Notes under the pieces: model-generated | The model's input: the letters and a program-made list of their open reading frames with translations, nothing else | Database searches by the model: none | Told to the model about the DNA's origin: nothing | Shown here: in pieces, positions 1 through 61,774 of the stretch | How the letters are laid out: the number at the start of each line of letters is the position of its first letter | Numbering within the stretch: the first letter of the stretch is position 1 | Origin: Pyrinomonadales bacterium | GTDB lineage: Bacteria > Acidobacteriota > Blastocatellia > Pyrinomonadales > Pyrinomonadaceae | Direction of reading: 5' to 3' | Assembly (NCBI GenBank): GCA_038212235.1 | Contig: JBBQUS010000032.1 | Coordinates: 1 to 61,966 of the forward strand | DNA: 61,966 bases | Position numbers and translations under genes: made by a program

Positions 1-45
1 CCACCGCCGCCGCCGCCGCCGCCGCCCGATCCTGACTTATTATGA
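1..45 (+). CDS. 3' end of an upstream CDS (partial), ending in a poly-Pro tail (PPPPPPPPDPDLL*)
   Basis: In-frame (CCG)n run followed by TGA at 43-45 and a strong hairpin immediately downstream. Alternatively the GCC run is Gly-coding on the minus strand. Confidence 0.25.
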   Translation, partial: PPPPPPPPPDPDLL

Positions 46-6610: not shown

Positions 6611-7441
6611 TTAGGCAGTCGGGATTTTTACAAATGGCATTCCGCGCAAAATGACTTTTTGGCGACGGGTCACGCGTTTCGGGTTTTTCTGCGGGTTAAA
6701 GATGTTAAGCGGGCTCGGAATCATCGCCGATAGATAGGCGGCTTCCTGCGGAGATAAATCAGCGGCGCTCTTTTTAAAGTAAAAGCGCGACGCTGCTTCC
6801 GCGCCGTACAGCCCATCGCCCCATTCGATGACGTTGAGATAAATCTCCAAAATTCGGCGTTTCGAGAGATTGCTTTCAAGCGAGCGAGTGACAAAATATT
6901 CGCGAATTTTGCGGGTGAACGAGCGTTCTTCGCTCAAGTAAAGATTTTTCGCCAGCTGCTGCGTGATGGTTGACGCACCGCGTTTGAAATTAGAGGTTTT
7001 CGGGTATCCGAGCGAAGTTAAGATAGTGTCAATAATACTGTCTTTATCAAGATTCGGGAGCTGCCAATCGTTCGGGTCATTGTCGCCTTCTTCTTTGGCT
7101 TCTTTTTCGGCCTCTTTCTGCGCATCTTCCCATGATTTTTGGATGGCGTCCCAGTCAAAACCGTGATGTGTCAAAAAGTTAGTGTCTTCTCCGGCCAGCA
7201 CGGCGCGTTGCAAATTAGTGGAGATTTTATCAATCGGAACCCAAATTTGCTGACGTTTGGGTTCTTTGCCGTCTTTTTTAGCTTCTGACGCGCGATATTC
7301 AATCATCGAAGTCGTCGCGGGATTTTCGGTCCTAAGCTTGGCAATATTCGGAAAGGTGAGAAATTCATAGCCCAGCCAGAAGACAAACGCGCCGATAACA
7401 ATCAGAAAAATTACTTTGAACCAGTACCAAATAAATCTCAT
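6611..7441 (-). CDS. mtgA: Monofunctional biosynthetic peptidoglycan transglycosylase (GT51)
   Basis: N-terminal TM anchor. EDTNFLTHHGFDW and ITQQLAKNLYLS transglycosylase motifs. Carries an acidic insert. Confidence 0.8.
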   Translation of the reverse strand: MRFIWYWFKVIFLIVIGAFVFWLGYEFLTFPNIAKLRTENPATTSMIEYRASEAKKDGKEPKRQQIWVPIDKISTNLQRAVLAGEDTNFLTHHGFDWDAIQKSWEDAQKEAEKEAKEEGDNDPNDWQLPNLDKDSIIDTILTSLGYPKTSNFKRGASTITQQLAKNLYLSEERSFTRKIREYFVTRSLESNLSKRRILEIYLNVIEWGDGLYGAEAASRFYFKKSAADLSPQEAAYLSAMIPSPLNIFNPQKNPKRVTRRQKVILRGMPFVKIPTA

Positions 7442-7530
7442 AACAGTTATCAGTTATCAGTTATCAGTTATCAGTTGCCAGGATTGTTCCTCAGACAATT
7501 GATAACTGTTGACTGTTTACTGTTGAGTGA
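7442..7530. repeat. Heptanucleotide tandem array (CAGTTAT)x4-5 followed by inverted copies (ATAACTG, TGACTGT) between the mtgA start codon and the upstream gene stop
   Basis: ataacagttatcagttatcagttatcagttatcagttgcc ... caattgataactgttgactgtttactgttgag. Confidence 0.9.
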
Positions 7531-9016
7531 GCATTTTCGCGACAATTTTGCCTGAACTCATGACGCCCGGAAGTCCTGCGCCCGGATGCGTTCCCGCCCC
7601 GACAAAATAAAGATTCGAAATGTCTTCGGAGACATTATGCGGGCGAAAATAAGCCGATTGCATCAAGGTCGGTTCGACTCCGAAAGCGTTGCCCGCGTAG
7701 CTGTTAAGAGTATCGCGAAAATGGAGCGGATCAATATAAGTTTCCGTGACGATATGTTGTTCCAAATCAGGCATATAGTTGTCTGAGAGGAATTTGATGA
7801 TCGAGTCGCGATACGGTTTTGCCGCTGTCGTCCAGTCAACGTTGCCGCCAAGATTCGGAACGGGCGAGAGGACGTACCAGCTATCACAACCCAGCGGAGC
7901 CAAACTTTCGTCGGTCGCAGTCGGGCGATGCAGATAGAGCGAAAAATCTTCCGCCAGAATTTTCCTGTTAAAAATGTCGTCAAGCAAGCCTTTGTAGCGC
8001 TTCCCCATAATTATTTCGTGATGCGCCATGTTTTCGTAACGGCGATTAGTACCAAAATAAATGACGAACAGCGACATCGAAAAGCGCAGCTTTTTAATCC
8101 GCGCGTCGGTGTTTTTGCGACGATATTTGTGGTCAATCAGGTTTAAATAAGTAAAACCGACATCAGCATTTGAAACGACGGCATCGGCGGGCAAAAAATC
8201 GCCGTTCTTTAGGTAAACGCCGGTTGCTTTTCTGGTTTTATCATCAATGAAAATCCGGTCAACTTCGGCTTCGAGAAAAATTTCGCCGCCGATGTCCAGA
8301 AACAGTTCAGATAAACCTCTGACCAAGGCTCCGGTTCCGCCCATCGCAAACCAGACGCCGAATTCCTGTTCCAGCCGATGAATCATCGAGTAAATCGAGG
8401 TCGCTTCAAAAGGATTGCCGCCGATCAGCAGCGGATGAAAACTAAAAGCCTGCTGCAGACGCTCGTCTTTAAAATATTTGGCGGCAAATTGAACGACCGA
8501 ACGATCCGAGCGCAGTTTAATCATCTGCGGCACAACGCGGAGCATATCGGTCATTTTGGTAAACGGCTGATCAATCAATTCAAATCCGACACGGTAAATC
8601 TCGCCCAAATCGCGGGCAAATTTTTTGTAGCCGGCGACGTCGTCCGGGTTAAATTTCCGAATTTGCGCGAGCAGATTTTCCTTGTCGTCGTTGTAATTAA
8701 AGACAGCGCCATCGGGAAAACGAATGTTATAAAACGGATCAATTTTAACCAGCCGAACGTAATCCGCTGTTTTCCTGCCGGCAACCTCAAACATTTCGTC
8801 AATCAGCCACGGCGCGGTAATAATGGTCGGACCGCCGTCAAAAACAAAACCGTCCTGCTCATAAACGTACGCCCGCCCGCCTGGTTTATCGCGTTTTTCG
8901 ATGATCGTGACTTGATGTCCCTGGGCTTGCAGACGAATCGCCGCTGAAAGCCCGCCAAAACCGCTCCCGATAACAATAATTTTCACTAATTCTCCCCTGC
9001 TTGTTCGATTGTCCAA
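7517..9016 (-). CDS. Phytoene desaturase family FAD-dependent oxidoreductase (CrtI/CrtD-like)
   Basis: KIIVIGSGFGGLSAAIRL dinucleotide-binding motif. About 500 aa. CrtI-family conserved blocks. The annotated start is TTG; an in-frame GTG (V of VKIIVIGSG, about 8985) gives the canonical N-terminus. Confidence 0.8.
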   Translation of the reverse strand: MDNRTSRGELVKIIVIGSGFGGLSAAIRLQAQGHQVTIIEKRDKPGGRAYVYEQDGFVFDGGPTIITAPWLIDEMFEVAGRKTADYVRLVKIDPFYNIRFPDGAVFNYNDDKENLLAQIRKFNPDDVAGYKKFARDLGEIYRVGFELIDQPFTKMTDMLRVVPQMIKLRSDRSVVQFAAKYFKDERLQQAFSFHPLLIGGNPFEATSIYSMIHRLEQEFGVWFAMGGTGALVRGLSELFLDIGGEIFLEAEVDRIFIDDKTRKATGVYLKNGDFLPADAVVSNADVGFTYLNLIDHKYRRKNTDARIKKLRFSMSLFVIYFGTNRRYENMAHHEIIMGKRYKGLLDDIFNRKILAEDFSLYLHRPTATDESLAPLGCDSWYVLSPVPNLGGNVDWTTAAKPYRDSIIKFLSDNYMPDLEQHIVTETYIDPLHFRDTLNSYAGNAFGVEPTLMQSAYFRPHNVSEDISNLYFVGAGTHPGAGLPGVMSSGKIVAKMLTQQ

Positions 9017-11969: not shown

Positions 11970-13055
11970 TCATCTGCGGTCTATTTTCTGCAACATTTCC
12001 CGAAGCGGCCAGTCGTCGTCAAAAATTATCTCTATTTCAACCACAAAACACGGCAAACTGAATTTTAAATTCTTTAATTTTACCGCGTCTTTGGCCGTTG
12101 TCAGCAATATTTCCGCGCCGTTTAAGCGCGCTTGATTCTCAATAAAATCAAGGTCAATTTGTTGGTAAACGTGATGATCCGGAAACGCTTTGACGGATGC
12201 GAGGAGAAAATCCGATTGCCGCAGGCTCTCGAAAAATCCGTGCGGATTGCCGAGCGCGCAAAACGCCAGCCCGATTTTGGATTTCGTATTTCGTATTTCG
12301 TATTCCGCGCTCGATAAATCCGGTGATTTGGCGGGAAACCCTCTGATATTTGTCAGCCCGACGATTCGAGTTTTTGACAGCAAAATCTGACAAGTTGCAT
12401 TGAGACTTTGGACTTTGAGCTTTAAACTTTGAACTTTGTCGCTCAAATCGGCGCGGGTTAAAACTACGCAATCGGCGCGGCGCAGACTTGTTAAAGACTC
12501 GCGAAGGATTCCAGCGGGTAATAATTTTTCATTGCCAAAAGGGTTGGTTGAGTCTATGCAGACAATGTCCAAATCGCGTTTAAGCCTCAGATGCTGAAAG
12601 CCATCGTCCAGAACAAAAGCCGTAATTCCCCAAGTCCTGAACGCCCAGATTCCGGCTGCCGCGCGATTTTTGTCCGCAATGACGGCTGCCATCCCGAGTA
12701 ATTTGTTTGAGAGCTCAAACGGTTCGTCACCTGCGCTCTCGGCATCGGCTAAAATTTGCTGTCCATCGGAAACTAAAACTCTTTTTGTCGGGCTAGCGCG
12801 TTTGTAGCCGCGTGTCAGAATACAGACTTTGTGTCCGCGTTCGGCTAAAACTTCAGCCACAAATCGGACGAGCGGCGTTTTGCCCGTCCCGCCAACCGTT
12901 AAATTTCCGACGCTGATAACCAGAGCGCCCAAATCAACCGATTTGAAAAAACCGTGACGGTAGAGTCTGCGTCGCCCTCCGGCGATTCCGCCAAACAGCC
13001 AGCCAAACGGCGCCAGCAATTTTTCAGCTTGTTTGTTCAAATTATTTTTCCGCAA
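11970..13055 (-). CDS. lpxK: Tetraacyldisaccharide 4'-kinase
   Basis: VGNLTVGGTGKTP P-loop, DDGFQH, TAKDAVK motifs. Contains two in-frame heptamer repeat blocks. Confidence 0.85.
   Translation of the reverse strand: MRKNNLNKQAEKLLAPFGWLFGGIAGGRRRLYRHGFFKSVDLGALVISVGNLTVGGTGKTPLVRFVAEVLAERGHKVCILTRGYKRASPTKRVLVSDGQQILADAESAGDEPFELSNKLLGMAAVIADKNRAAAGIWAFRTWGITAFVLDDGFQHLRLKRDLDIVCIDSTNPFGNEKLLPAGILRESLTSLRRADCVVLTRADLSDKVQSLKLKVQSLNATCQILLSKTRIVGLTNIRGFPAKSPDLSSAEYEIRNTKSKIGLAFCALGNPHGFFESLRQSDFLLASVKAFPDHHVYQQIDLDFIENQARLNGAEILLTTAKDAVKLKNLKFSLPCFVVEIEIIFDDDWPLREMLQKIDRR
12278..12308. repeat. (ATTTCGT)x3-4 heptamer tandem repeat inside the lpxK CDS
   Basis: gatttcgtatttcgtatttcgtattccgc. 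On the coding strand it encodes AEYEIRNTKSK. Confidence 0.85.
12404..12437. repeat. (GACTTTG/AACTTTG) heptamer-derived repeat inside the lpxK CDS
   Basis: gactttggactttgagctttaaactttgaactttg. Encodes QSLKLKVQSL on the coding strand. Confidence 0.8.
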
Positions 13056-46890: not shown

Positions 46891-47547
46891 ATGGTTGCCG
46901 TCCTTTCGATTTCCTTCATTGCAATCGCCGTCCTGATCGTTTACACGATTGGGCGGCGACTTTTCTATGACGAGCCGGAAAGCCAAACTCGCTTGCAGCC
47001 GCTTAAACCCGTCACACTCTTTGCCCCCGACGCAAAATTGCTGGCGGAAATCGAACAAGCGGAGCATTACCGGAAAGCTGCGGAAGAAAGCGAAAGAGTA
47101 ATGGCTTGGGCAAGTCTGGTCAAGTTTTCGGAATTGAAGGAAATACCTCTTACTGAAAATAAAGAAATAGCAAATGATTCGCTCGAAATCTTGACCGACC
47201 GCGCCGAATTGAGCGAAGATGTGCTCGCGCTCAGTTCGTTTGTCGTCAACCATAAAACGTTAAATGTAAACCAAAAACTCATCAACAAGTTTCAAATCTG
47301 TTGGGAAAACGCGCCCGATCTGCAAAAGACAACCGAATTTTTCGAACTGGCTCTGCGCGCCGACGACGCCGATTTATTTCAAAGCGTTTTTAACGAATCC
47401 GAGCGATTGATCACAAACGGTAAATTGTCTGATTTGGATTTGAACGAACTTCGCGAATTGGCAGCCAGTCATTTTTGGCTGCTTTCATCAAGCGCCAGAA
47501 TGTCCGGCGCTGGCTTTTGGCTCAAACAAAAGCTTAATTACAGTTAA
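46891..47547 (+). CDS. Hypothetical membrane-anchored protein (218 aa)
   Basis: N-terminal TM helix. No motif recognised. Confidence 0.45.
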   Translation: MVAVLSISFIAIAVLIVYTIGRRLFYDEPESQTRLQPLKPVTLFAPDAKLLAEIEQAEHYRKAAEESERVMAWASLVKFSELKEIPLTENKEIANDSLEILTDRAELSEDVLALSSFVVNHKTLNVNQKLINKFQICWENAPDLQKTTEFFELALRADDADLFQSVFNESERLITNGKLSDLDLNELRELAASHFWLLSSSARMSGAGFWLKQKLNYS

Positions 47548-47575
47548 CAGTCAGCAGTTAGCAGTCAACAGATTT
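47538..47575. repeat. CAGTTAACAG-family heptamer repeats abutting a stop codon
   Basis: ttacagttaacagtcagcagttagcagtcaacag. The TAA stop of the upstream gene lies within the first unit. Confidence 0.85.
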
Positions 47576-49835: not shown

Positions 49836-49962
49836 GTTTAACTGATAACAGAAAACGGAAAACGGATAATTTTAGGTTCCTGCGCCTTTCATTATTCGTT
49901 TTCCGTTTTTCATTTTTAGTTTGGTTTTTGAGCATGTTACGATTAGATTTTCAGCATTATTA

Positions 49963-51240
49963 ATGAACGAAAATATTCAAGTCACGCGCCTCGCCAACGG
50001 GCTCACAATTCTAACCGAAAAAATGCCTGATTTGCGTTCGGCGACAATCGGCATCTGGCTTAAAAAAGGTTCTCGACACGAACCGGCAGAACTAAACGGA
50101 ATTTATCATTTTATCGAACATGCGGTTTTTAAAGGCACACAAAGGCGTTCTGCGTTTGACATCGCGACGGAATCAGACCGCCTCGGCGGCAACCTCGACG
50201 CCTTCACTTCGCATGAATCAACCGGATTTGTCATGAAGGTCGTGGACAAAAGTGTTCCGCAAGCCTTTGATTTACTGGCGGATATGGTAATCAATCCGCT
50301 CTTTGACAAAACCGAATTGCGGCGCGAGCAAAAAGTTATTATCGAAGAAATGAAAATGGTTGAAGATTCGCCCGAAGAATTTTTGGGGGAACTTTTTAAC
50401 CACGCTTTTTTTCCCGATCATCCTTTAGGTTTGCCGATTGAAGGCACGCGCCAAACTGTCAAAACTTTTGATCAGGAAACGACCGCCGCCTTTCACCGCG
50501 AAACATTCACGCCCGGTAATTTAATCGTCGCCGCCGCCGGAAATGTTGAACACGCTCAAATTGTCGAACTGGCAAGTAATTTTTTCGTCGCTCAAGAAAC
50601 GGAAATCCAAAATCCAAAATCCAAAATCCAAAATCCAAAGATGGCTGCTCCGATTTTGCTTAAGAAAAAGCCCGATCTGGAGCAGGCGCATCTGGTCATC
50701 GCCACGCCGTTTGTGACGGCAAAAAGCGAACAACGTTACGCCGCGCATCTTTTGACCAATATTATCGGCGGCGGAACTTCGTCGCGGTTGTGGCAATCGG
50801 TGCGGGAAAAACGCGGGCTGGCGTATTCGGTCGGGGCAAGCGCGATTTCATTTCAGGATTGCGGAGTGTTCTCGATTTATGCCGGAACTTCGCCCGTGCA
50901 GCTTGAAAAAGTCGTAGCTTTGTCAATTAGCGCAATGCGAAAAATGGTCAGGCGAGGTGTTTCGGCGGCGGAACTTGAACTGGTTAAAGAACAGGCCGCT
51001 GCTTCGATTTTGTTTGGTCTCGAAGATTCGAGCGTCCGCGCCGCGTCACTGGCCGAAAACGAGATGATTCACGGGCGGCAAATCTCGCCCGACGAAACCT
51101 TAGCCAACTTTCAAAAAGTTTCGACCGCCGACGTCCAAAATGTGGCGGCGGAGTTTTTTCAAACTGATAAAATCGCGCTCGCCGCGCTTGGCAATCTCAA
51201 CGGTTTCAAAGTCAAACGCTCGCGTTTTGAAACGGCGTAA
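49963..51240 (+). CDS. M16-family (pitrilysin/insulinase-like) zinc peptidase
   Basis: Inverted zinc motif HFIEHAVFKGT (HxxEH). Contains an in-frame (AAATCCA)x5 repeat encoding EIQNPKSKIQNPK. Confidence 0.75.
   Translation: MNENIQVTRLANGLTILTEKMPDLRSATIGIWLKKGSRHEPAELNGIYHFIEHAVFKGTQRRSAFDIATESDRLGGNLDAFTSHESTGFVMKVVDKSVPQAFDLLADMVINPLFDKTELRREQKVIIEEMKMVEDSPEEFLGELFNHAFFPDHPLGLPIEGTRQTVKTFDQETTAAFHRETFTPGNLIVAAAGNVEHAQIVELASNFFVAQETEIQNPKSKIQNPKMAAPILLKKKPDLEQAHLVIATPFVTAKSEQRYAAHLLTNIIGGGTSSRLWQSVREKRGLAYSVGASAISFQDCGVFSIYAGTSPVQLEKVVALSISAMRKMVRRGVSAAELELVKEQAAASILFGLEDSSVRAASLAENEMIHGRQISPDETLANFQKVSTADVQNVAAEFFQTDKIALAALGNLNGFKVKRSRFETA
50603..50639. repeat. (AAATCCA)x5 heptamer tandem repeat inside the M16 peptidase CDS
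   Basis: aaatccaaaatccaaaatccaaaatccaaaatccaaag. Confidence 0.9.
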
Positions 51241-53449: not shown

Positions 53450-53785
53450 ATGTCCACAAAACTTTACGTCGGTAATCTTTCATTTAAAACAACCGACCAA
53501 GATCTACAAGACCTTTTCGCACAAGCCGGAACGGTTCAATCAATTAACATTATCACTGACCGCGACACCGGTTTTTCGCGCGGCTTCGGCTTTGTCGAAA
53601 TGTCCTCGCCTGAAGAAGGTGCAGCTGCTATTCAGCAATTAAACGGCAAGGAAATTGACGGTCGTGGTTTGACCGTTAACGAAGCTAAACCCCGCGAAGA
53701 ACGCAGCGGCGGTGGTGGCGGCGGCAGAAACGGCGGCGGCGGTGGCCGCGGCGGTTTTGGCGGCGGCAATCGCGGCGGCTACTAG
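53450..53785 (+). CDS. RRM-domain RNA-binding protein with a glycine-rich C-terminus
   Basis: RNP1 (RGFGFVEM) and RNP2 (LYVGNL) motifs. [23 protein letters not shown] tail. Confidence 0.85.
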
Positions 53786-54690: not shown

Positions 54691-56196
54691 TTAGATTGCG
54701 GCAATCGGCGGTTGTCCGGTAACTTGTTCGAGTTCGGCTTCTTCGCGTTCCCATTCCTCGTTGCGAAACGCACCTTCCCATTTGGCGATAACCACAGTCG
54801 CGAGGCAGTTGCCAATTACATTAACGGCGGTGCGCGCCATATCCATTAATTCATCAACTCCCAAAATCAAAATCACGCCTTCGACCGGCAGATTAAACGA
54901 AGCCAGTGTGCCAAGCAAAATCACGAGCGAAGCGCGCGGTACGCCCGCCACGCCTTTTGACGTTAGCATCAATGTCAGCAGCATCACAATTTGCTGCGTC
55001 CATGTCAGCGAAACGCCGGCCGCCTGCGCCACGAAAATTGAGGCGAGAGCGAGATAAAGTGTCGTTCCGTCAAGATTAAAACTATAACCGGTTGGCAAAA
55101 CAAACCCGACGATGCGCTGCGGAACGCCCAGTCGCACCATATTTTCCATCGCTCTGGGCAAAGCGGATTCGCTCGATGTAGTCGCAAATGCGATTGTCGC
55201 CGGAGTTTTGACCGCGTTGATAAAATCTCGCAGCGGAACTTTGAAAATGAGCGCAATCGGCAGCAGGACGAGCAAGAGAAAGGCGACGAGGGCGCCGTAA
55301 AGCGTTCCGACGAGCATTCCAAGATTTAATAAAACCTTGAGGCCGCTATGACCGATTGTATAAGCCATTGCCGCGCCGACTCCGACGGGCGCAAATTTCA
55401 TAATAAATTCGGTAAAGCGAAACATGATATCAGCGAGCGATTCGCACCAACTAATCATTGCGCCCGCCTTTTCGCCGCCGATACTGGTCACGGCGAGAGC
55501 GAAAATCACCGAAAAAACAACAATCTGCAAAACGTCGCCTTCGGCCATCGCCTGAATAATCGAAGTCGGCGAAAGATGCGCGATAATTTCGCCAAATGTT
55601 TTTGGTTTCGCGGGTGGCTCCGGCGCGGTTAAACCGCGCGCTGCGGCGTCAGCGGCTGCGGCGGCTTTTTGAGACGCTATTGCCGATTGCTGTTCGGCTT
55701 CGACGCCAGCATTTGGATTCGTTGCCGTTTGCGCTCTTAATTCGTCTGCGCGTTTTGAGGCATCGGTAGCTTCAGCAGCCAGTGATTTGGCGCGCTCTGC
55801 CAGAAGCGCTTTGTCCTCGGTCTTGGCAATACCCGATAATGAGACCCCCTTCCCGGGTTGGACGATATTAACCGCCGCTAAACCGATAAAGAGCGCGAGC
55901 GTCGTGACGATTTCAAAATAAATCAATGATTTTGCGCCGATTCGACCAACTTGTTTGATGTCTCCCGTTCCGGCGATTCCGATGACCAGAGTGGCAAAAA
56001 TCAACGGCGCGATGATTGATTTGATTAAATTTAGAAAAAGCGTCGAAAGAGACCTGATCATCGTCAGATAAGCGTCGGCATCAAACTGCTCTTTCGGAAC
56101 ATTAGCTTTAACCTCCTGAATCAGCGCGCCGAGCAAAATGCCCAGCACCAGCCCAATCATGATTTTCCAAGTCAGAGAAATTTTCGGCAGTTTCAT
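54691..56196 (-). CDS. Dicarboxylate/amino acid:cation symporter (GltP/GltT family) with an Ala-rich insert of about 75 aa
   Basis: DAACS conserved blocks (…GVPQRIVGFVLPTGYSFNLDGT…; …VDELMDMARTAVNVIGNCLAT…). Confidence 0.8.
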   Translation of the reverse strand: MKLPKISLTWKIMIGLVLGILLGALIQEVKANVPKEQFDADAYLTMIRSLSTLFLNLIKSIIAPLIFATLVIGIAGTGDIKQVGRIGAKSLIYFEIVTTLALFIGLAAVNIVQPGKGVSLSGIAKTEDKALLAERAKSLAAEATDASKRADELRAQTATNPNAGVEAEQQSAIASQKAAAAADAAARGLTAPEPPAKPKTFGEIIAHLSPTSIIQAMAEGDVLQIVVFSVIFALAVTSIGGEKAGAMISWCESLADIMFRFTEFIMKFAPVGVGAAMAYTIGHSGLKVLLNLGMLVGTLYGALVAFLLLVLLPIALIFKVPLRDFINAVKTPATIAFATTSSESALPRAMENMVRLGVPQRIVGFVLPTGYSFNLDGTTLYLALASIFVAQAAGVSLTWTQQIVMLLTLMLTSKGVAGVPRASLVILLGTLASFNLPVEGVILILGVDELMDMARTAVNVIGNCLATVVIAKWEGAFRNEEWEREEAELEQVTGQPPIAAI

Positions 56197-56204
56197 TTTT
56201 TATT

Positions 56205-56248
56205 GGTGAATAGTAAATAGTGAATAGTAAATAGTGAATAGTGAATAT
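56205..56248. repeat. (GTGAATA/GTAAATA)x6 heptamer tandem array immediately upstream of the gltP-like start
   Basis: ggtgaatagtaaatagtgaatagtaaatagtgaatagtgaatat. Confidence 0.9.
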
Positions 56249-56311
56249 AAAAGTAATTGTGAAGTTTACTCGTCCGCATATTCTTATATTTTCCTTTATT
56301 TTCCTTGAATG

Positions 56312-56339
56312 CACCATTTACCATTCATCATTCACCATT
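56312..56339. repeat. Inverted copy of the GTGAAT-family heptamer array
   Basis: caccatttaccattcatcattcaccatt is the reverse complement of aatggtgaatgatgaatggtaaatggtg. Confidence 0.8.
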
Positions 56340-56346
56340 AAATTTC

Positions 56347-57255
56347 CTATCTTCCCCAACGCAGTTTGTCGCGCAAAACATCGAAATAATTGCGGTTGTG
56401 CGGTTGAACGAGGTTAAAAGTAGTTTTGCTTTTGCGAATTCGTACAATATCGTTTGTTTGCAGTTCGTATCCGACCTGTCCGTCCAGAGTTAGTATTACT
56501 TCTTCGCCCATCGTATTTAATTGCAATTCGATAATGGCATCGTCCGGCATGACAATTGGGCGATTTGAGAGCGTAAAAGGACAAATCGGAGTGATCACCA
56601 GCGCATTCATTGTCGGAAATACGATTGGCCCGCCAGCCGATAAATTGTAAGCGGTCGAACCGGTCGGAGTCGAGACAATCAAACCATCGGCGCGGAAGGC
56701 ATTGACAAACATTTGATTAAATCTTGTCTCGATTTCAATAATTCGGGCGAGAGCGGCTTTGTTGATGACGACATCGTTCAGGACGCGATTGCTCGACAAA
56801 ACTCCGTCGCCGCGCAAATGCTCGACGCGGAGAGTGACGCGGCGGTCGAGCTCATAATTTCCCGCTAAAATTTCCTCAAGCGCGGCAAACATCTCCTCAA
56901 TTCGGAATTCGGTCAGATATCCGAGACTGCCGTAATTAATTCCCAAAACCGGAATCTCGCGGTCGCCGACGATTCGCACCGTCGCAATCATTGTCCCGTC
57001 GCCGCCGAGCACAACGAGTAAATCAACGTCTTCGCCGATTCTTCCGTTCTCAACTGCCGAAATATCGCAAAAATTGATGTCTCCCGCAAATTTTTCCGAC
57101 TGCGAAAGCGGTTCACCGAAGGTTTTAATGCCGCGTTCAGCAAACCACCCGGCCAGCTCGCAAGCCGTCCGCCATGCTTCCGCATGGCGGGGTTTAACTA
57201 CTACTCGGACAGATTTTACGACCGGTTTGGGGGCCGGTTCAAGTTGCGAATTCAA
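56347..57255 (-). CDS. nadK: NAD(+) kinase
   Basis: GGDGTMI motif (VLGGDGTMIATVR) and NAD kinase blocks. Confidence 0.8.
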   Translation of the reverse strand: MNSQLEPAPKPVVKSVRVVVKPRHAEAWRTACELAGWFAERGIKTFGEPLSQSEKFAGDINFCDISAVENGRIGEDVDLLVVLGGDGTMIATVRIVGDREIPVLGINYGSLGYLTEFRIEEMFAALEEILAGNYELDRRVTLRVEHLRGDGVLSSNRVLNDVVINKAALARIIEIETRFNQMFVNAFRADGLIVSTPTGSTAYNLSAGGPIVFPTMNALVITPICPFTLSNRPIVMPDDAIIELQLNTMGEEVILTLDGQVGYELQTNDIVRIRKSKTTFNLVQPHNRNYFDVLRDKLRWGR

Positions 57256-57407
57256 TTAATAAAGCCTCGAGAATGCAGATTTAATAAAACGCTTCGTAGT
57301 TTAGTCAAAGCGGCGGCAAAAAGAAAATGCAAATCGGAAATCCTTGTAAAAGATAAACGAAAGTTTGACAAATTCACACTAAATAAGTTAAAACATAAGT
57401 AAGTACT

Positions 57408-57421
57408 TACTAACTTAGCTA
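57408..57421. promoter_or_regulatory. Perfect 14-bp palindrome AGTAAGTACTTACT about 15 bp upstream of the emrA-like start. Candidate operator.
   Basis: Self-complementary sequence read directly. Confidence 0.3.
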
Positions 57422-57434
57422 GGGTTAAACTCAA

Positions 57435-58961
57435 ATGAGCGAGAGAGTCGAAGAGAAGAGTCCCGTTGCTGCTCCGAGCACCAACGGCAAACCGCAAACA
57501 ATTCATCAGACTAACGGAACCAACGGAAATAATGGAGCCAACGGAGGAGCGCCGAAAAATCAGGATGGCGCATCTGCCCCGGAAGAAACCCAATCAAAGG
57601 AAAATCAGGAAACCGCTCCGAATCAGACAGACGCAAACGAAACCGAAATCAAAAGCGAGGAAACAAAACCGTCGCGGCGTCGTTTGCCGATTTTTATTGT
57701 CGCCGGAGTGCTGCTGATAGGCGTAATAGCCGGAACAATTTACTGGCTGTATGCGAGACAGTATGAGACTACCGATGATGCTTTTATTGACGGCGATATC
57801 GTGCAGGTCAGTCCAAAATTATCAGCTTACGTTTCAAAAGTTTATGTTCATGATAATCAGCAAGTCAAAAAAGGCGATTTGCTGGTTGAGCTTGACCCGA
57901 GAGATTATCAGGCTCGTCTGGAAGCCGCGAACGCTCAATTGACAGCAGCCAAAGCGCAGCGCGGGCAGGCCCAAGCCGGGGTCGAATTAACGCGCAAAAC
58001 AACAACCGCCGGACGTTCTGAGGCTTCGTCAAACGTCGAAACCGCTCGCAGCAATGTTGAACAGACGCGCCTCGCCGCCGAGTCAAAACAGAGCGTGATC
58101 AGACAAGCCCAGAGCGCTGTTAAAACCGCGCAGGCCAATCTAGCGCAAACGCGAGCGCAGGTTCCGCAAGCGCAGGCAAATCTGCGTTTGGCACAGCTCG
58201 AATTTAATCGCCAGCAAAATCTTTATAATCGCGGCGATGTTTCCAAACAATCACTTGACCAAGCCACGACAGCTTTACAAACCACTCAGGCGCAGCTTGA
58301 GGCCGCTAACAAACTGGTTGACGCCGCCGCCGCGCGGGTTTCCGAAGCCAACGCCAACGTTGCCGTCGCGCAAGACAATTATCGCCAATCTCTGGCTCAG
58401 GTTAATCTGACGCAGTCGCAAGTTAATGAATCGCAAGGACGGCTCGAAGACGCTGCTGCCGCGCCTGAACGGATTGCGGTTAATCAATCGCAGGTGGGAA
58501 CGGCCGAAGCGCAAATGGCGCAGGCCGAAACCGCCGTGCGTCAAGCCGAACTTGAACTTTCATACACCAAAATCTACGCTCCAGAGGATGGATTTGTCAC
58601 TCGTAAGTCGGTTCAGGAAGGTCAGTTAGTCCAACCCGGTACGGCTCTAATGGCGCTCTCGCAGTCGGATGTCTGGGTAGTCGCGAACTTCAAAGAAACT
58701 CAGCTCGGATTGATGCGTCCCGGTCAGGCGGTTGACGTTTATGTTGATGCGTATCCGAATAAAACTTTTCGCGGCAAAATTGATAGTTTTCAGCTCGGAA
58801 CAGGGTCACGCTTTTCGGTTTTGCCGGCCGAAAATGCGACGGGTAACTATGTCAAAGTCGTTCAGCGCGTTCCGGTCAAAATAATTTTTGACGAAACTCC
58901 TGATGATGTCCGTTTGCTCGCGCCCGGCATGAGCGTTCAACCGAAAGTAAAGGTTAGATAA
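57435..58961 (+). CDS. HlyD/EmrA-family membrane fusion protein with an N-terminal Asn/Gly/Thr-rich low-complexity extension
   Basis: TM anchor. HlyD N-terminal block DGDIVQVSPKLSAYVSKVYV. Long Q/A-rich coiled coil. C-terminal beta-barrel motif. Confidence 0.8.
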   Translation: MSERVEEKSPVAAPSTNGKPQTIHQTNGTNGNNGANGGAPKNQDGASAPEETQSKENQETAPNQTDANETEIKSEETKPSRRRLPIFIVAGVLLIGVIAGTIYWLYARQYETTDDAFIDGDIVQVSPKLSAYVSKVYVHDNQQVKKGDLLVELDPRDYQARLEAANAQLTAAKAQRGQAQAGVELTRKTTTAGRSEASSNVETARSNVEQTRLAAESKQSVIRQAQSAVKTAQANLAQTRAQVPQAQANLRLAQLEFNRQQNLYNRGDVSKQSLDQATTALQTTQAQLEAANKLVDAAAARVSEANANVAVAQDNYRQSLAQVNLTQSQVNESQGRLEDAAAAPERIAVNQSQVGTAEAQMAQAETAVRQAELELSYTKIYAPEDGFVTRKSVQEGQLVQPGTALMALSQSDVWVVANFKETQLGLMRPGQAVDVYVDAYPNKTFRGKIDSFQLGTGSRFSVLPAENATGNYVKVVQRVPVKIIFDETPDDVRLLAPGMSVQPKVKVR

Positions 58962-59048
58962 GGGATGAAGGATGAGGGCGGAGAGATGAAAGCCAATGAA
59001 TCTAATCAAATTAGATTATCTATTTAATTTCATCCCTCATCCTTCATC
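58962..59048. repeat. Compound hairpin between emrA-like and emrB-like genes: 15-bp outer stem built from GATGAAG/GATGAGG heptamers, with a nested AATCTAAT-CAA-ATTAGATT palindrome
   Basis: gggatgaaggatgaggg...ccctcatccttcatc. Inner aatctaatcaaattagatt. Confidence 0.7.
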
Positions 59049-59065
59049 ACTCATCTTTCTTCTTT

Positions 59066-60679
59066 ATGGCTACCAGCACTGCCGCGCTTGACGCAAAATA
59101 TAGTTCTGCCGAAAAGTCGCGCCCCGATATCAATCCGATTCTGGTCGTGATGATTTTAACAATTGCGACGTTTATGGAAGTGCTTGACACTGCCATTGCA
59201 AATGTTTCTCTGCGGCAAATAGCGGGCAGTTTTTCCGCCGGTCAGGACGAATCAACTTGGGTTTTAACTTCGTATCTCGTTGCCAACGCGATTGTTTTGC
59301 CGATCAGCGGCTGGCTTGCCACATATTTTGGGCGCAAACGATTTTATATGTTTTGCGTCGGATTATTCGTCGTCAGCTCCTTTATGTGCGGAGCTTCGAC
59401 GAGTCTCGGAATGCTGATTTTCTTTCGCATTCTGCAAGGTTTGGGCGGCGGCGGTTTGGCTCCGTCCGAGCAATCTATTATTGCCGATACGGTTCCGCCG
59501 CAAAAACGCGGCATCGCCTTTGCAATTTACGGGATGGGCGTAGTTTTTGCCCCGGCCATCGGCCCGACCCTCGGCGGCTGGATTACTGATAATTACAGCT
59601 GGCACTGGATTTTCTTTATCAACGTCCCGGTCGGAGTTTTATCGCTTGCGCTCACCTGGTATTTTGTCAGAGAGCCAAAAGGAACAGCAATCGAGCGCGA
59701 AAGACTAAAAAAAGAGGGCTCCAAAATTGATTGGGTAGGTATTTTGCTGTTTGCAGTTGGCATCGGCGCGCTTGAGATTGTTTTGGATGAAGGTAATCGC
59801 GAGGATTGGTTTGAATCAAGTTTTATCATCGCTTTCGCGATTGTCGCAGTTATCTCTCTCGTTATTGGGATTACCTACGAGTTTTACCAAAAACACCCGG
59901 CAGTTGATGTGCGGCTCTTGTTAAATCGTAACTTCGCTAGTTCTTTTATACTGCTTTTTGTTCTAGGTTTCATTCTTTTCGGCTCGACTTTTTTATTGCC
60001 GTTAATGGCGCAATCTCTGCTCGGATACTCGGCGATTGACGCCGGAATGGTTATTTCGCCGGGCGGCCTGGTTGTGATGGCAATGATGCCCGCCGTCGGT
60101 TTTATGCTGCAGAAAGTTCAGGCGCGCTGGCTAATTCTGGCCGGATTAACCATTTCCGCTCTCTCTCTCTGGCATTTGACAACGCTTAGTTTGGACGCGG
60201 ATTATTATTCACTAATGTGGGCGCGAATATATCAGGCTTCCGGTCTGGCGCTGCTGTTCGTGCCGATTAACACGGCTTCCTACACGGGCGTTCCGGCCAA
60301 CAAAAGCAATAGTGTCTCGGCTCTGATGAATCTCTCACGAAATCTTGGCGGCAGTTTCGGCATTGCAATTTTGTCCACGCTTTTAGCCAGACAGACGCAG
60401 CATCACATTAACACCCTTGGCTATTACACAACCGATTACAGCCCAAACTTTGTCGCGGCTCTTAACAAACTCACGCAAATTTTGCAGGAGCAGGGTTTAA
60501 GCGCGATGGACGCCGCTACTCAGGCTCGCGGCAGAATCTGGTCTAATGTTATTAGACAAGCTACGATGCTCGCTTTTATTGATGATTTTTATATTTTAAT
60601 GCTTTTGATTGCCGGTGCGATTCCGCTCGTCTTTTTGCTCAAAGCAAACAAACCGGGAGCAGGCGGCGGGGGACATTAA
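59066..60679 (+). CDS. MFS transporter, DHA2/EmrB-QacA family (14 TM)
   Basis: 537 aa. MFS motif A region. EmrB-like conserved N-terminus (MEVLDTAIANVSL). Confidence 0.85.
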   Translation: MATSTAALDAKYSSAEKSRPDINPILVVMILTIATFMEVLDTAIANVSLRQIAGSFSAGQDESTWVLTSYLVANAIVLPISGWLATYFGRKRFYMFCVGLFVVSSFMCGASTSLGMLIFFRILQGLGGGGLAPSEQSIIADTVPPQKRGIAFAIYGMGVVFAPAIGPTLGGWITDNYSWHWIFFINVPVGVLSLALTWYFVREPKGTAIERERLKKEGSKIDWVGILLFAVGIGALEIVLDEGNREDWFESSFIIAFAIVAVISLVIGITYEFYQKHPAVDVRLLLNRNFASSFILLFVLGFILFGSTFLLPLMAQSLLGYSAIDAGMVISPGGLVVMAMMPAVGFMLQKVQARWLILAGLTISALSLWHLTTLSLDADYYSLMWARIYQASGLALLFVPINTASYTGVPANKSNSVSALMNLSRNLGGSFGIAILSTLLARQTQHHINTLGYYTTDYSPNFVAALNKLTQILQEQGLSAMDAATQARGRIWSNVIRQATMLAFIDDFYILMLLIAGAIPLVFLLKANKPGAGGGGH

Positions 60680-60797
60680 TCAGTTAACAATTAATCAGTC
60701 AACAGTTAACAGTCAACAATACAAAAGCTTTACACAAAGTCAGCGTCTGTTGATCTATGATAACTGTTGACTGTTAACTGTTAACTGTTAACTGATT
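60679..60797. repeat. Inverted pair of CAGTTAACAG / CAGTCAACAG heptamer arrays (arms of about 40 bp) spanning the space between convergent gene ends
   Basis: taatcagttaacaattaatcagtcaacagttaacagtcaacaat ... atgataactgttgactgttaactgttaactgttaactgatta. Confidence 0.9.
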
Positions 60798-61301
60798 AGG
60801 TATTGGCAGCCAACGCCAATCTTCACCGTACAATTCTTGATTTAACCGCTCAATCTTTCTCTCGGCGTTATCTTGCAGGCATTGCGGCGGCAAATCCTCC
60901 TGCCGTTCGTAACAAGCGTGTTGAATGCACGGAGCGGGTTTGGCTTCGTCGTGAACCAGGCAACCGATTTTCGGCTCAAAAAGAGGGCACGCGTAAGTTT
61001 GCTTAAAAGTGTCTCCAGTTTTATCTAACGCATATTTTTTAATTGTCTCTGCAAGACGCTCGTCAATTTTTTTCAGTTCTTCGGCGTTTAATTTACGCTG
61101 CAAAGTTTCGCGGATTGCGACGGCTTCGAGCGGCGTGATGTGAACGTTAACAAAATGAGCGTCGGTGCAGCACGCACCAAAAGTCGGACAGGCGGCGCAA
61201 TCTTGGGCTGCGGTTTCAAAATTCTCACTGATAAATTTACGGTAAGAATCTTTGACGCGGCGTAATTCCGTCAAAGATTCTTGTTCAAGAATGGTCGGCA
61301 T
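60774..61301 (-). CDS. YkgJ-family (UPF0153) zinc/iron-chelating Cys-cluster protein
   Basis: CAACPTFGACC (CxxCxxxGxCC) motif and further conserved Cys. The C-terminal codons run into the heptamer repeats. Confidence 0.6.
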   Translation of the reverse strand: MPTILEQESLTELRRVKDSYRKFISENFETAAQDCAACPTFGACCTDAHFVNVHITPLEAVAIRETLQRKLNAEELKKIDERLAETIKKYALDKTGDTFKQTYACPLFEPKIGCLVHDEAKPAPCIQHACYERQEDLPPQCLQDNAERKIERLNQELYGEDWRWLPIPNQLTVNS

Positions 61302-61312
61302 TTTTATAATTT

Positions 61313-61774
61313 TTATCTTCCTAAAAACGATAATCGTTCCAAAATTTCGTTTAACTCCTGCCGGCTTTTGCTTCCAGTTTCCGGGTTATATTCATCAAGC
61401 GCTGAATTTTCCAAAAAGTTAGATAATCTTTTGAGATGATTTATTAAAGCCGGTTTTACGTTTTCAGGCGCGGTTTGCAGAAGCAATTGCAACAGTTGCA
61501 ATTGCTTCTGCTTGGTTTCTTGGTCATGAATGCCTGTCTCGGCTTTTGACAAAAAACTTCCAACTGAAAATAACCACGATTCTTTGGGATTGCCACTTAA
61601 TTTGCCATCAATAGAGGCATGAACAGAAGCAAAAATTGAGCTTTTGTTTTCCCAATTTTCAACTGTCATTTGCAGCATTTGTTCTTCGAAATCAAAACCG
61701 GATGGCAACAGCGTAATTAAATTTTTCAAACTATATTTGTCGCGATCTATTGAAATGCTACCTTCACTTTGCAA
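61313..61774 (-). CDS. Hypothetical protein (153 aa)
   Basis: ORF only. Confidence 0.35.
   Translation of the reverse strand: MQSEGSISIDRDKYSLKNLITLLPSGFDFEEQMLQMTVENWENKSSIFASVHASIDGKLSGNPKESWLFSVGSFLSKAETGIHDQETKQKQLQLLQLLLQTAPENVKPALINHLKRLSNFLENSALDEYNPETGSKSRQELNEILERLSFLGR

Follow-up and report, generated by a model that had tools for sequence, protein, structure and literature searches.

Between two convergent genes in a 61,966-nt stretch of a Pyrinomonadales bacterium (contig JBBQUS010000032.1, family Pyrinomonadaceae, phylum Acidobacteriota; this whole stretch is called the window below), we find two inverted heptamer arrays of 42 and 38 nt, separated by 40 nt (positions 60677-60798), built on the unit CAGT(T/C)AA. 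Judging by its sequence, this element is a heptamer hairpin resembling the short tandemly repeated repetitive (STRR) sequences of cyanobacteria, that is, an already known kind of repeat in a new lineage. Our preferred reading, to which we give a probability of about 0.5, is that it is a stem-loop built by replication slippage at the 3' end of a gene, where it would act as an RNA structure. The genes on either side are that of a DHA2/EmrB-family major facilitator superfamily efflux permease (59066-60679, + strand) and that of a conserved Cys-rich hypothetical protein of 175 aa (60774-61301, - strand).

Tandem Repeats Finder resolved the left arm (60677-60720) into 3.1 copies with a period of 15 and 3.3 copies with a period of 7 (60696-60718), and the right arm (60761-60798) into 4.9 copies with a period of 7 (60761-60794). 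A separate period scan concurred on the period-7 arrays. The left arm reads as two 15-nt units, ATTAATCAGT(T/C)AACA, with the heptamers GTTAACA and GTCAACA after them, while the right arm, its reverse complement, consists of TAACTGT x4.9 and ends in TAACTGA TTA. Depending on the register, the arms are complementary over 34 nt at 82% or over 27 nt at 93%, with a gap of 40 to 53 nt. The 40-nt spacer that would form the loop (60721-60760) is non-repetitive, is not conserved in orthologues and showed no similarity elsewhere in the window or in 87 related loci. A preliminary description of this DNA had placed inverted repeat arrays here between convergent genes, with arms of about 40 bp some 38 bp apart, and our measurements bear this out; the 10-mer given there as the repeat unit has to be corrected to the heptamer. 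The CAGTYAA unit is seen at three loci of the window, and AACAGTYAACAGT, allowing at most one mismatch, is present in 12 copies against 0.05 expected.

The predicted stem is A+U-rich, about 45 bp long and spans 60677-60798, with pairing possible on either strand. RNA folding of the region gave -45.9 kcal/mol on the + strand (z -6.4) and -53.2 kcal/mol on the - strand (z -8.8), with 0 of 200 shuffles as good, so the fold-energy calculation that had been suggested as a check returned a strongly stable hairpin on both strands. The - strand fold is the stronger of the two because the two C/T positions at which the arms differ pair as G-U on that strand. It is the sense strand of the Cys-rich gene, and the G-U pairs fit the model of an RNA stem-loop at its 3' end. 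A search of Rfam gave nothing at gathering score, only sub-threshold look-alikes of microRNA precursors (36.7 bits vs 90), which reflect the length of the hairpin and nothing more.

To place the element among its relatives, we surveyed the window together with the 87 related loci, a sample of 103 arrays, and took a census of repeat periods in 586 kb from 80 related genomes. Five strict tandem arrays in the window have a period of 7, against zero or one for every other period from 4 to 15, and the 586 kb hold 70 such arrays against at most nine for any other period. Requiring at least 12 of 14 matching bases within 200 nt, we found an inverted partner for 81 of the 103 arrays (79%) and a direct partner for four; shuffled units gave none. 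Many of the hairpins are near-perfect stems of 30-45 bp. Their units are diverse, with 41 distinct classes in 53 hairpins, and BLAST of loops and whole elements across the window and the 87 loci returned similarity at the level of the heptamer unit only, the loops being unrelated. Variant units were mirrored between the arms in 18 of the 27 informative hairpins (Wilcoxon p = 0.008 relative to unit-permuted controls); the arms are therefore true palindromic copies and not two independently grown arrays. The copy numbers of the two arms, which span a narrow range, gave a Spearman correlation of 0.23 (p = 0.25).

Regarding their position relative to genes, 56 of the 103 arrays lie between genes of the same direction, 13 between convergent and 9 between divergent genes, 15 inside long open reading frames (ORFs) and 10 at contig ends; in other words, 78 of the 93 placeable arrays are outside long ORFs. 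Expressed per spacer of at least 40 nt, the density is 0.095 in divergent, 0.23 in same-direction and 0.20 in convergent spacers. The distance from the stop codon to the hairpin has a median of 6 nt and is 15 nt or less in 36 of 49 cases. Between same-direction genes, the stop side was the nearer in 24 cases and the start side in 6 (p = 0.0014), and among spacers with at least 40 nt of slack the stop side was nearer in 11 of 12.

We also compared the orthologous site in eight loci, the window included, and found a hairpin at the 3' end of the Cys-rich gene in six of them. CAGTTAA-type hairpins are present in the window (z -8.8) and in loci L081 (z -2.5), L086 (z -4.0) and L003 (z -3.1), with different copy numbers and unrelated loops. 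In L084 (z -3.3) and L087 (z -8.8) the same site carries AATTACG / CGTAATT, the unit having changed on both arms. In most orthologues, then, the Cys-rich gene retains a hairpin at its end, with a variable loop, copy number and even unit. The gene order in the window across 54691-61301 is SDF symporter (-), NAD kinase (-), emrA (+), emrB (+) and Cys-rich gene (-). In L082 and L087 a NAD kinase gene of the same direction comes directly after the Cys-rich gene, followed in L082 by the SDF symporter gene. The window, L081, L085, L086 and L003 have the emrAB pair, which L082 and L087 lack; with the Cys-rich gene joined to the NAD kinase gene in these two, emrAB is an insertion or a deletion beside the hairpin. 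L087 keeps its hairpin with a same-direction NAD kinase gene downstream, and hence the hairpin belongs to the Cys-rich gene and not to emrB.

The C-termini of the two flanking proteins, whose comparison among orthologues had been proposed as a check, gave two different answers: EmrB orthologues share their last residues regardless of the array, and those of the Cys-rich protein end in differing heptamer tails. The permease matches Pfam MFS_1 (7.7e-61) and NCBIfam TIGR00711 (445.7 bits, cut-off 230.2), which confirms its earlier label as EmrB-like. It ends in ...GGGGH, with its TAA stop at 60677-60679, at the left edge of the hairpin, and in its frame the left arm holds TAA codons at 60677, 60692 and 60707, 15 nt apart. 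Five orthologues have the ...GGGH-stop terminus in common, whether the adjoining array is long, short or decayed, so by this comparison EmrB has a native stop, and the array does no more than adjoin it.

The Cys-rich protein ends in ...PNQLTVNS, and its last six codons (QLTVNS) and stop (60774-60794) are within the right arm, just as the preliminary description had read them from the arm opposite to emrB. Since CAGTTAA carries TAA on both strands, this tail and its stop are encoded by the array; any frame entering such an array closes within 21 nt. Among the orthologues, conservation extends as far as W-LP-P-x-(Q/W)-L, beyond which the sequences part into translated-heptamer tails, which include QLTVNS, QLTIIS, QLRISNYE and QLKIKN. 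Longer and more distant homologues have a conserved extension of about 50 aa, WLTLVDPESDGAEL...RASLPVI, in place of these tails. The alignment separates a long form of about 205-240 aa (P0049-P0119) from a short form of about 170-190 aa (P0001-P0048) that stops in heptamer-derived codons and to which the window gene belongs. Taking this alignment as a guide, in the window's clade the array occupies the point where the Cys-rich protein was shortened. In L087 (2470-2600, protein P0010) the ORF spans the first arm, the loop and part of the second arm, giving the tail QLRINNYELRMPESNLSSIRNS, and a hairpin of -50 kcal/mol is read through and turned coding.

Hence, the earlier idea that heptamer arrays supply stop codons stands for the Cys-rich gene and falls for EmrB. 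Nor is there an enrichment of units that contain a stop triplet (24 of 40 vs 21.8 expected, p = 0.53), which rules out selection for stop-bearing units. The supply of stops is accordingly incidental, a by-product of A+T-rich units such as CAGTTAA and not a selected role. As for the identity of the Cys-rich protein, it had been labelled YkgJ-like; neither PF03692 nor any other Pfam or NCBIfam family matched it, even at E up to 10, and we have discarded that identity. Its close homologues all come from Pyrinomonadaceae, Blastocatellia or Acidobacteriota metagenome-assembled genomes.

One could argue that such a hairpin between two convergent stops is a bidirectional terminator, as had been suggested. 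What stands of this suggestion is that the hairpin is stable on both strands and that the family is tied to gene 3' ends; a canonical intrinsic terminator, with a G+C-rich stem and a T-tract, has to be rejected. Past the stem, the + strand continues with GGTATTGG and the - strand with ATGTCCCC. Nor does the 56-62 kb region hold an excess of terminator-like sites (7 vs 9.0 expected). A terminator role is plausible in a loose, non-canonical sense only, to go by these predictions.

Several results weigh against the reading of the element as a 3'-end RNA stem-loop. The terminator scan called no site at 60677-60798, and the focal locus has neither a G+C-rich stem nor a T-run or U-tract on either side. 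Family-wide, we saw no T-tract on the sense strand after the stems (2.7 vs 3.0 T per 9 nt, p = 0.43), in a test that is weakened because predicted stems, those of L011 and L037 for example, take in A- and T-tracts. Among 30 hairpins between same-direction genes, the better fold was that of the sense strand in 15 cases and of the antisense strand in 14 (p = 0.6), so no asymmetry was detected. At the orthologous site, L082 and L085 have no significant hairpin; the loss in these two of eight loci makes the hairpin dispensable. About 11% of the hairpins lie between divergent genes and some arrays inside coding sequences, and therefore not every array can be a 3'-end element. Finally, genes in the family survey were placed by a longest-ORF heuristic and not by a gene finder. 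Because this rule shifts predicted starts upstream, the stop-side bias is, for its part, a conservative figure.

The mechanism that we propose begins with arrays that would grow and shrink by replication slippage in steps of 7 nt, since the copy-number differences between orthologues fit such steps. Template switching within the quasi-palindrome, or else selection for pairing, may then keep the arms complementary. The resulting stem-loop would serve the 3' end of the Cys-rich transcript and, in the window, that of emrB as well. It could do so by hindering, in a non-canonical manner, read-through from one convergent gene into the other, or by blocking 3'-to-5' exonucleases, and not as a U-tract terminator.

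Slippage and template switching could also have left the element as a neutral by-product, with arrays persisting beside stops where they are harmless and with no function in RNA or DNA. We consider this possible although rather unlikely, and it is a serious rival because the hairpins show no fold asymmetry, no T-tract and no canonical terminator. The loss of the hairpin in L082 and L085, the fast evolution of unit, copy number and loop, and the presence of arrays in coding sequences and divergent spacers all agree with it, and heptamers, in many bacteria the most over-represented of the long simple repeats, have been ascribed to polymerase slippage (Mrazek, as summarised in PMC4679880). However, a by-product would not be expected to favour the stop side by 24 to 6, or by 11 of 12 in long spacers, when the start side is equally harmless. 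Neither would it be expected to keep a hairpin at one gene end despite replacement of the unit on both arms. If the heptamers were instead protein- or ribosome-binding sites for a regulator, in single- or double-stranded form as proposed in Beggiatoaceae, the exact (TAACTGA)x4 array that ends 1-2 nt before the mtgA start codon of the window without a Shine-Dalgarno sequence would be accounted for, as in PMC4679880, and so would several arrays located 19-30 nt upstream of start codons. The focal element, however, sits between two stops with no start codon nearby. Besides, 41 units in 53 hairpins are beyond a single sequence-specific binder, and the pairing of 79% of the arrays into hairpins would hide single-stranded sites, all of which makes this explanation improbable.

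A DNA-level cruciform or recombination hotspot that promotes rearrangement at the junction is at least as improbable. The DNA fold of the region is favourable (-28.5 kcal/mol, z -6.9), one end of the emrAB insertion or deletion lies beside the hairpin, and the lack of strand asymmetry would suit an entity that works as DNA. Against this, the complete hairpin of L087 sits on the Cys-rich-gene side of the junction, which places the breakpoint outside the arrays, and since a breakpoint can fall in any intergenic spacer, the coincidence is weak evidence. A 40-nt loop disfavours cruciform extrusion. The hotspot that the preliminary description had put forward as the alternative to a terminator therefore finds no specific support. 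Lastly, inverted arms, an intergenic location, many copies per genome and the recurrence of CAGTYAA at three window loci might recall a small mobile element spread by a transposase, such as a miniature inverted-repeat transposable element (MITE) or a palindrome like the repetitive extragenic palindromic (REP) sequences and their REPIN pairs. This we regard as extremely improbable. Similarity between elements is restricted to the heptamer unit and the loops of the window and the 87 loci share none, on which ground a MITE/REPIN family is excluded. The units are locus-specific (41 classes), the element stays at orthologous sites even as its sequence is altered there, and the focal locus has no target-site duplications or other flanking direct duplications.

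The 3'-end stem-loop reading can be extended to a broader proposal, which we regard as doubtful. Pyrinomonadaceae, and perhaps Blastocatellia more widely, might build stem-loops at gene ends by a process that is independent of sequence, in which slippage multiplies any local 7-mer and an inverted copy of it is made. Fast-evolving, locus-specific hairpins would then replace canonical terminators, with truncated or rewritten C-termini, such as the missing 50-aa extension of the Cys-rich protein, as a side effect. If true, the Pyrinomonadaceae would be a tractable non-cyanobacterial system for asking why long simple repeats in bacteria prefer a period of 7.

Other heptamer elements are scattered over the window. 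On the - strand, a hairpin formed by (TAACTGA)x4 with an inverted partner (7443-7526) lies between the stop of an amine-oxidase-like gene (7517-9016) and the ATG of an mtgA homologue (6611-7441, - strand, Pfam Transgly). Its TAACTGA array (7443-7477, - strand) is in forward orientation, immediately ahead of the ATG, and translates as LITDN followed by two stops; that an array flanks the mtgA start, as the preliminary description had it, is correct. So is its remark that the gene at 46891-47547 ends in the repeat: the protein closes with ...KLNYS, and the TAA lies inside the first CAGTTAA unit of a single unpaired array of that family (ACAGTTA ACAGTCA GCAGTTA GCAGTCA; 47540-47571, + strand). 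Further hairpins are found at 49839-49917 (+ strand; unit AACGGAA / TTCCGTT) between a SPFH-domain gene and a M16 peptidase gene, at 56204-56339 (- strand; imperfect AATAGTG / CACCATT) between the stop of the NAD kinase gene and the start of the SDF symporter gene, and at 58965-59060 (+ strand; GGATGA(A/G) / TCATCC(C/T)), where the hairpin fills the gap between emrA and emrB and is conserved in L081 and L086.

Some arrays in the window are unpaired and lie within genes. The LpxK coding sequence (11970-13055, - strand, Pfam LpxK 2.2e-85) contains two of them, at 12273-12304 and 12404-12438, with units TATTTCG and AACTTTG and translations ...EYEIRNTKSKIG... and ...DKVQSLKLKVQSLN...; by their sequence, both resemble inserts of repeat origin in an essential enzyme. 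At 50603-50639, between the two domains of the M16 peptidase gene (49921-51240), lies (AAATCCA)x5.3, translated as EIQNPKSKIQNPK. Apart from the heptamers, we noted a perfect 16-bp palindrome, GCAGAAGCAATTGCAA-CAG-TTGCAATTGCTTCTGC, at 61477-61511 inside a 153-aa ORF (61313-61774, - strand) with no Pfam family. Two further repeats are unrelated to the heptamer class: a run of CCG x7.7 at window positions 4-26 and a GCG-rich array with a period of 3/15 at 53702-53754, inside the ORF 53450-53785.

Outside the window, the hairpin at L024 1000-1138 has AGTAGAC x5 and its inverse flanking an inner G+C-rich stem-loop that is followed by TTT, like a canonical terminator, with a total of -96 kcal/mol, which suggests that a terminator already in place can acquire arrays on its flanks. 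The contigs of L083 (end 2752) and L084 (end 2013) end inside heptamer arrays just past the Cys-rich gene. Ten of the 103 arrays are at locus ends, and heptamer arrays probably break short-read assemblies.

To our knowledge, the function of bacterial heptanucleotide arrays has been without an explanation since the description of STRRs in 1990. With the present data, STRR-type architecture is seen in Acidobacteriota, together with quantitative rules for the family: 79% of arrays are paired, units are locus-specific, arms co-vary, and the hairpin follows the stop by about 6 nt. These family-wide rules are a more useful product than the focal element alone. They provide a second, phylogenetically distant system for asking whether heptamer hairpins end or stabilise transcripts. 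On the practical side, the arrays explain variable, repeat-encoded C-termini in Pyrinomonadaceae, tails that annotators should not take for conserved protein, and probably also contig breaks in metagenome assemblies.

Full-text literature searches returned no report that links Acidobacteria, Blastocatellia, Pyrinomonadaceae or Chloracidobacterium with heptamer repeats, and we therefore compared the elements with systems described in other bacteria. With bidirectional intrinsic terminators, the focal element shares a single symmetric hairpin between convergent stops that is stable on both strands; it differs in having a stem of about 45 bp, where 5-15 bp is usual, a 40-nt loop and no flanking A- or T-tracts. 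REPs are families of conserved sequence that are spread by REP-associated tyrosine transposases (RAYTs), whereas the elements described here are built of tandem units and have no conserved sequence beyond the locus-specific heptamer. Both are intergenic, follow stops and form inverted pairs with long hairpins. For the REP, bacterial interspersed mosaic element (BIME) and REPIN sequences of Enterobacteria and Pseudomonas, protection of mRNA 3' ends and termination have been proposed (PMC3733652).

Xanthomonas genomes carry GGGAATC heptamers in 70-75 convergent (inverted) pairs each (Rehm et al. 2015, PMC4692102). As in our loci, these are intergenic heptamer arrays, often in close inverted pairs capable of forming stem-loops or cruciforms, and the repeat length varies between related genomes while the repeat type is kept. 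The Xanthomonas repeats, however, are one family of G-rich units with G-quadruplex potential, whereas the units found here are diverse and, in this genome, mostly A+T-rich, with no G-tracts.

TAACTGA direct repeats have been described, for the most part a short way upstream of start codons, in marine Beggiatoaceae, 15 Cyanobacteria and 5 Bacteroidetes (MacGregor 2015, PMC4679880); Acidobacteria are not among the hosts given there. In forward orientation these repeats give stops in all frames, and they overlap ORF ends only briefly (PMC4679880). The explanation of period 7 by slippage likewise comes from literature that this paper summarises. The window has TAACTGA itself at 7450-7470 (- strand), and the TAACTGT/TAACTGA units of the focal right arm are at most one base off. 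The mtgA array agrees with these repeats in its distance of 1-2 nt from a start without Shine-Dalgarno sequence and in its LITDN-stop translation. The focal arms themselves consist of TAACTGT/TGACTGT with a single TAACTGA at the outer end. In contrast to Beggiatoaceae, where 1 of 170 sets is inverted, the arrays here are mostly inverted pairs, many other units are used, and the focal element lies between two stops.

The STRRs of cyanobacteria are 7-bp repeats that form hairpins between co-transcribed genes, for example hupS-hupL, with a proposed role in transcript stabilisation or translation coupling (PMC2670836); three such heptamers were first reported in Calothrix, as cited in PMC4692102. 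Filamentous cyanobacteria were the original hosts, and here the host is an acidobacterium. A cyanobacterial origin of the window is ruled out, as the HIP1 octamer occurs 0 times in it and the homologues are all from Pyrinomonadaceae or other Acidobacteriota. Whereas cyanobacteria have a few genome-wide families of STRRs, the units here are locus-specific (41 classes in 53 hairpins), and 79% of the arrays are paired into hairpins. In both lineages, tandem 7-nt units occupy intergenic positions at many loci per genome and form inverted sets capable of folding into hairpins. The CAACAGT heptamer present in the focal arms is what we take to be the STRR3 unit of Mazel et al. (1990), and the hairpin between emrA and emrB (58965-59060) is a direct analogue of the STRR hairpins.

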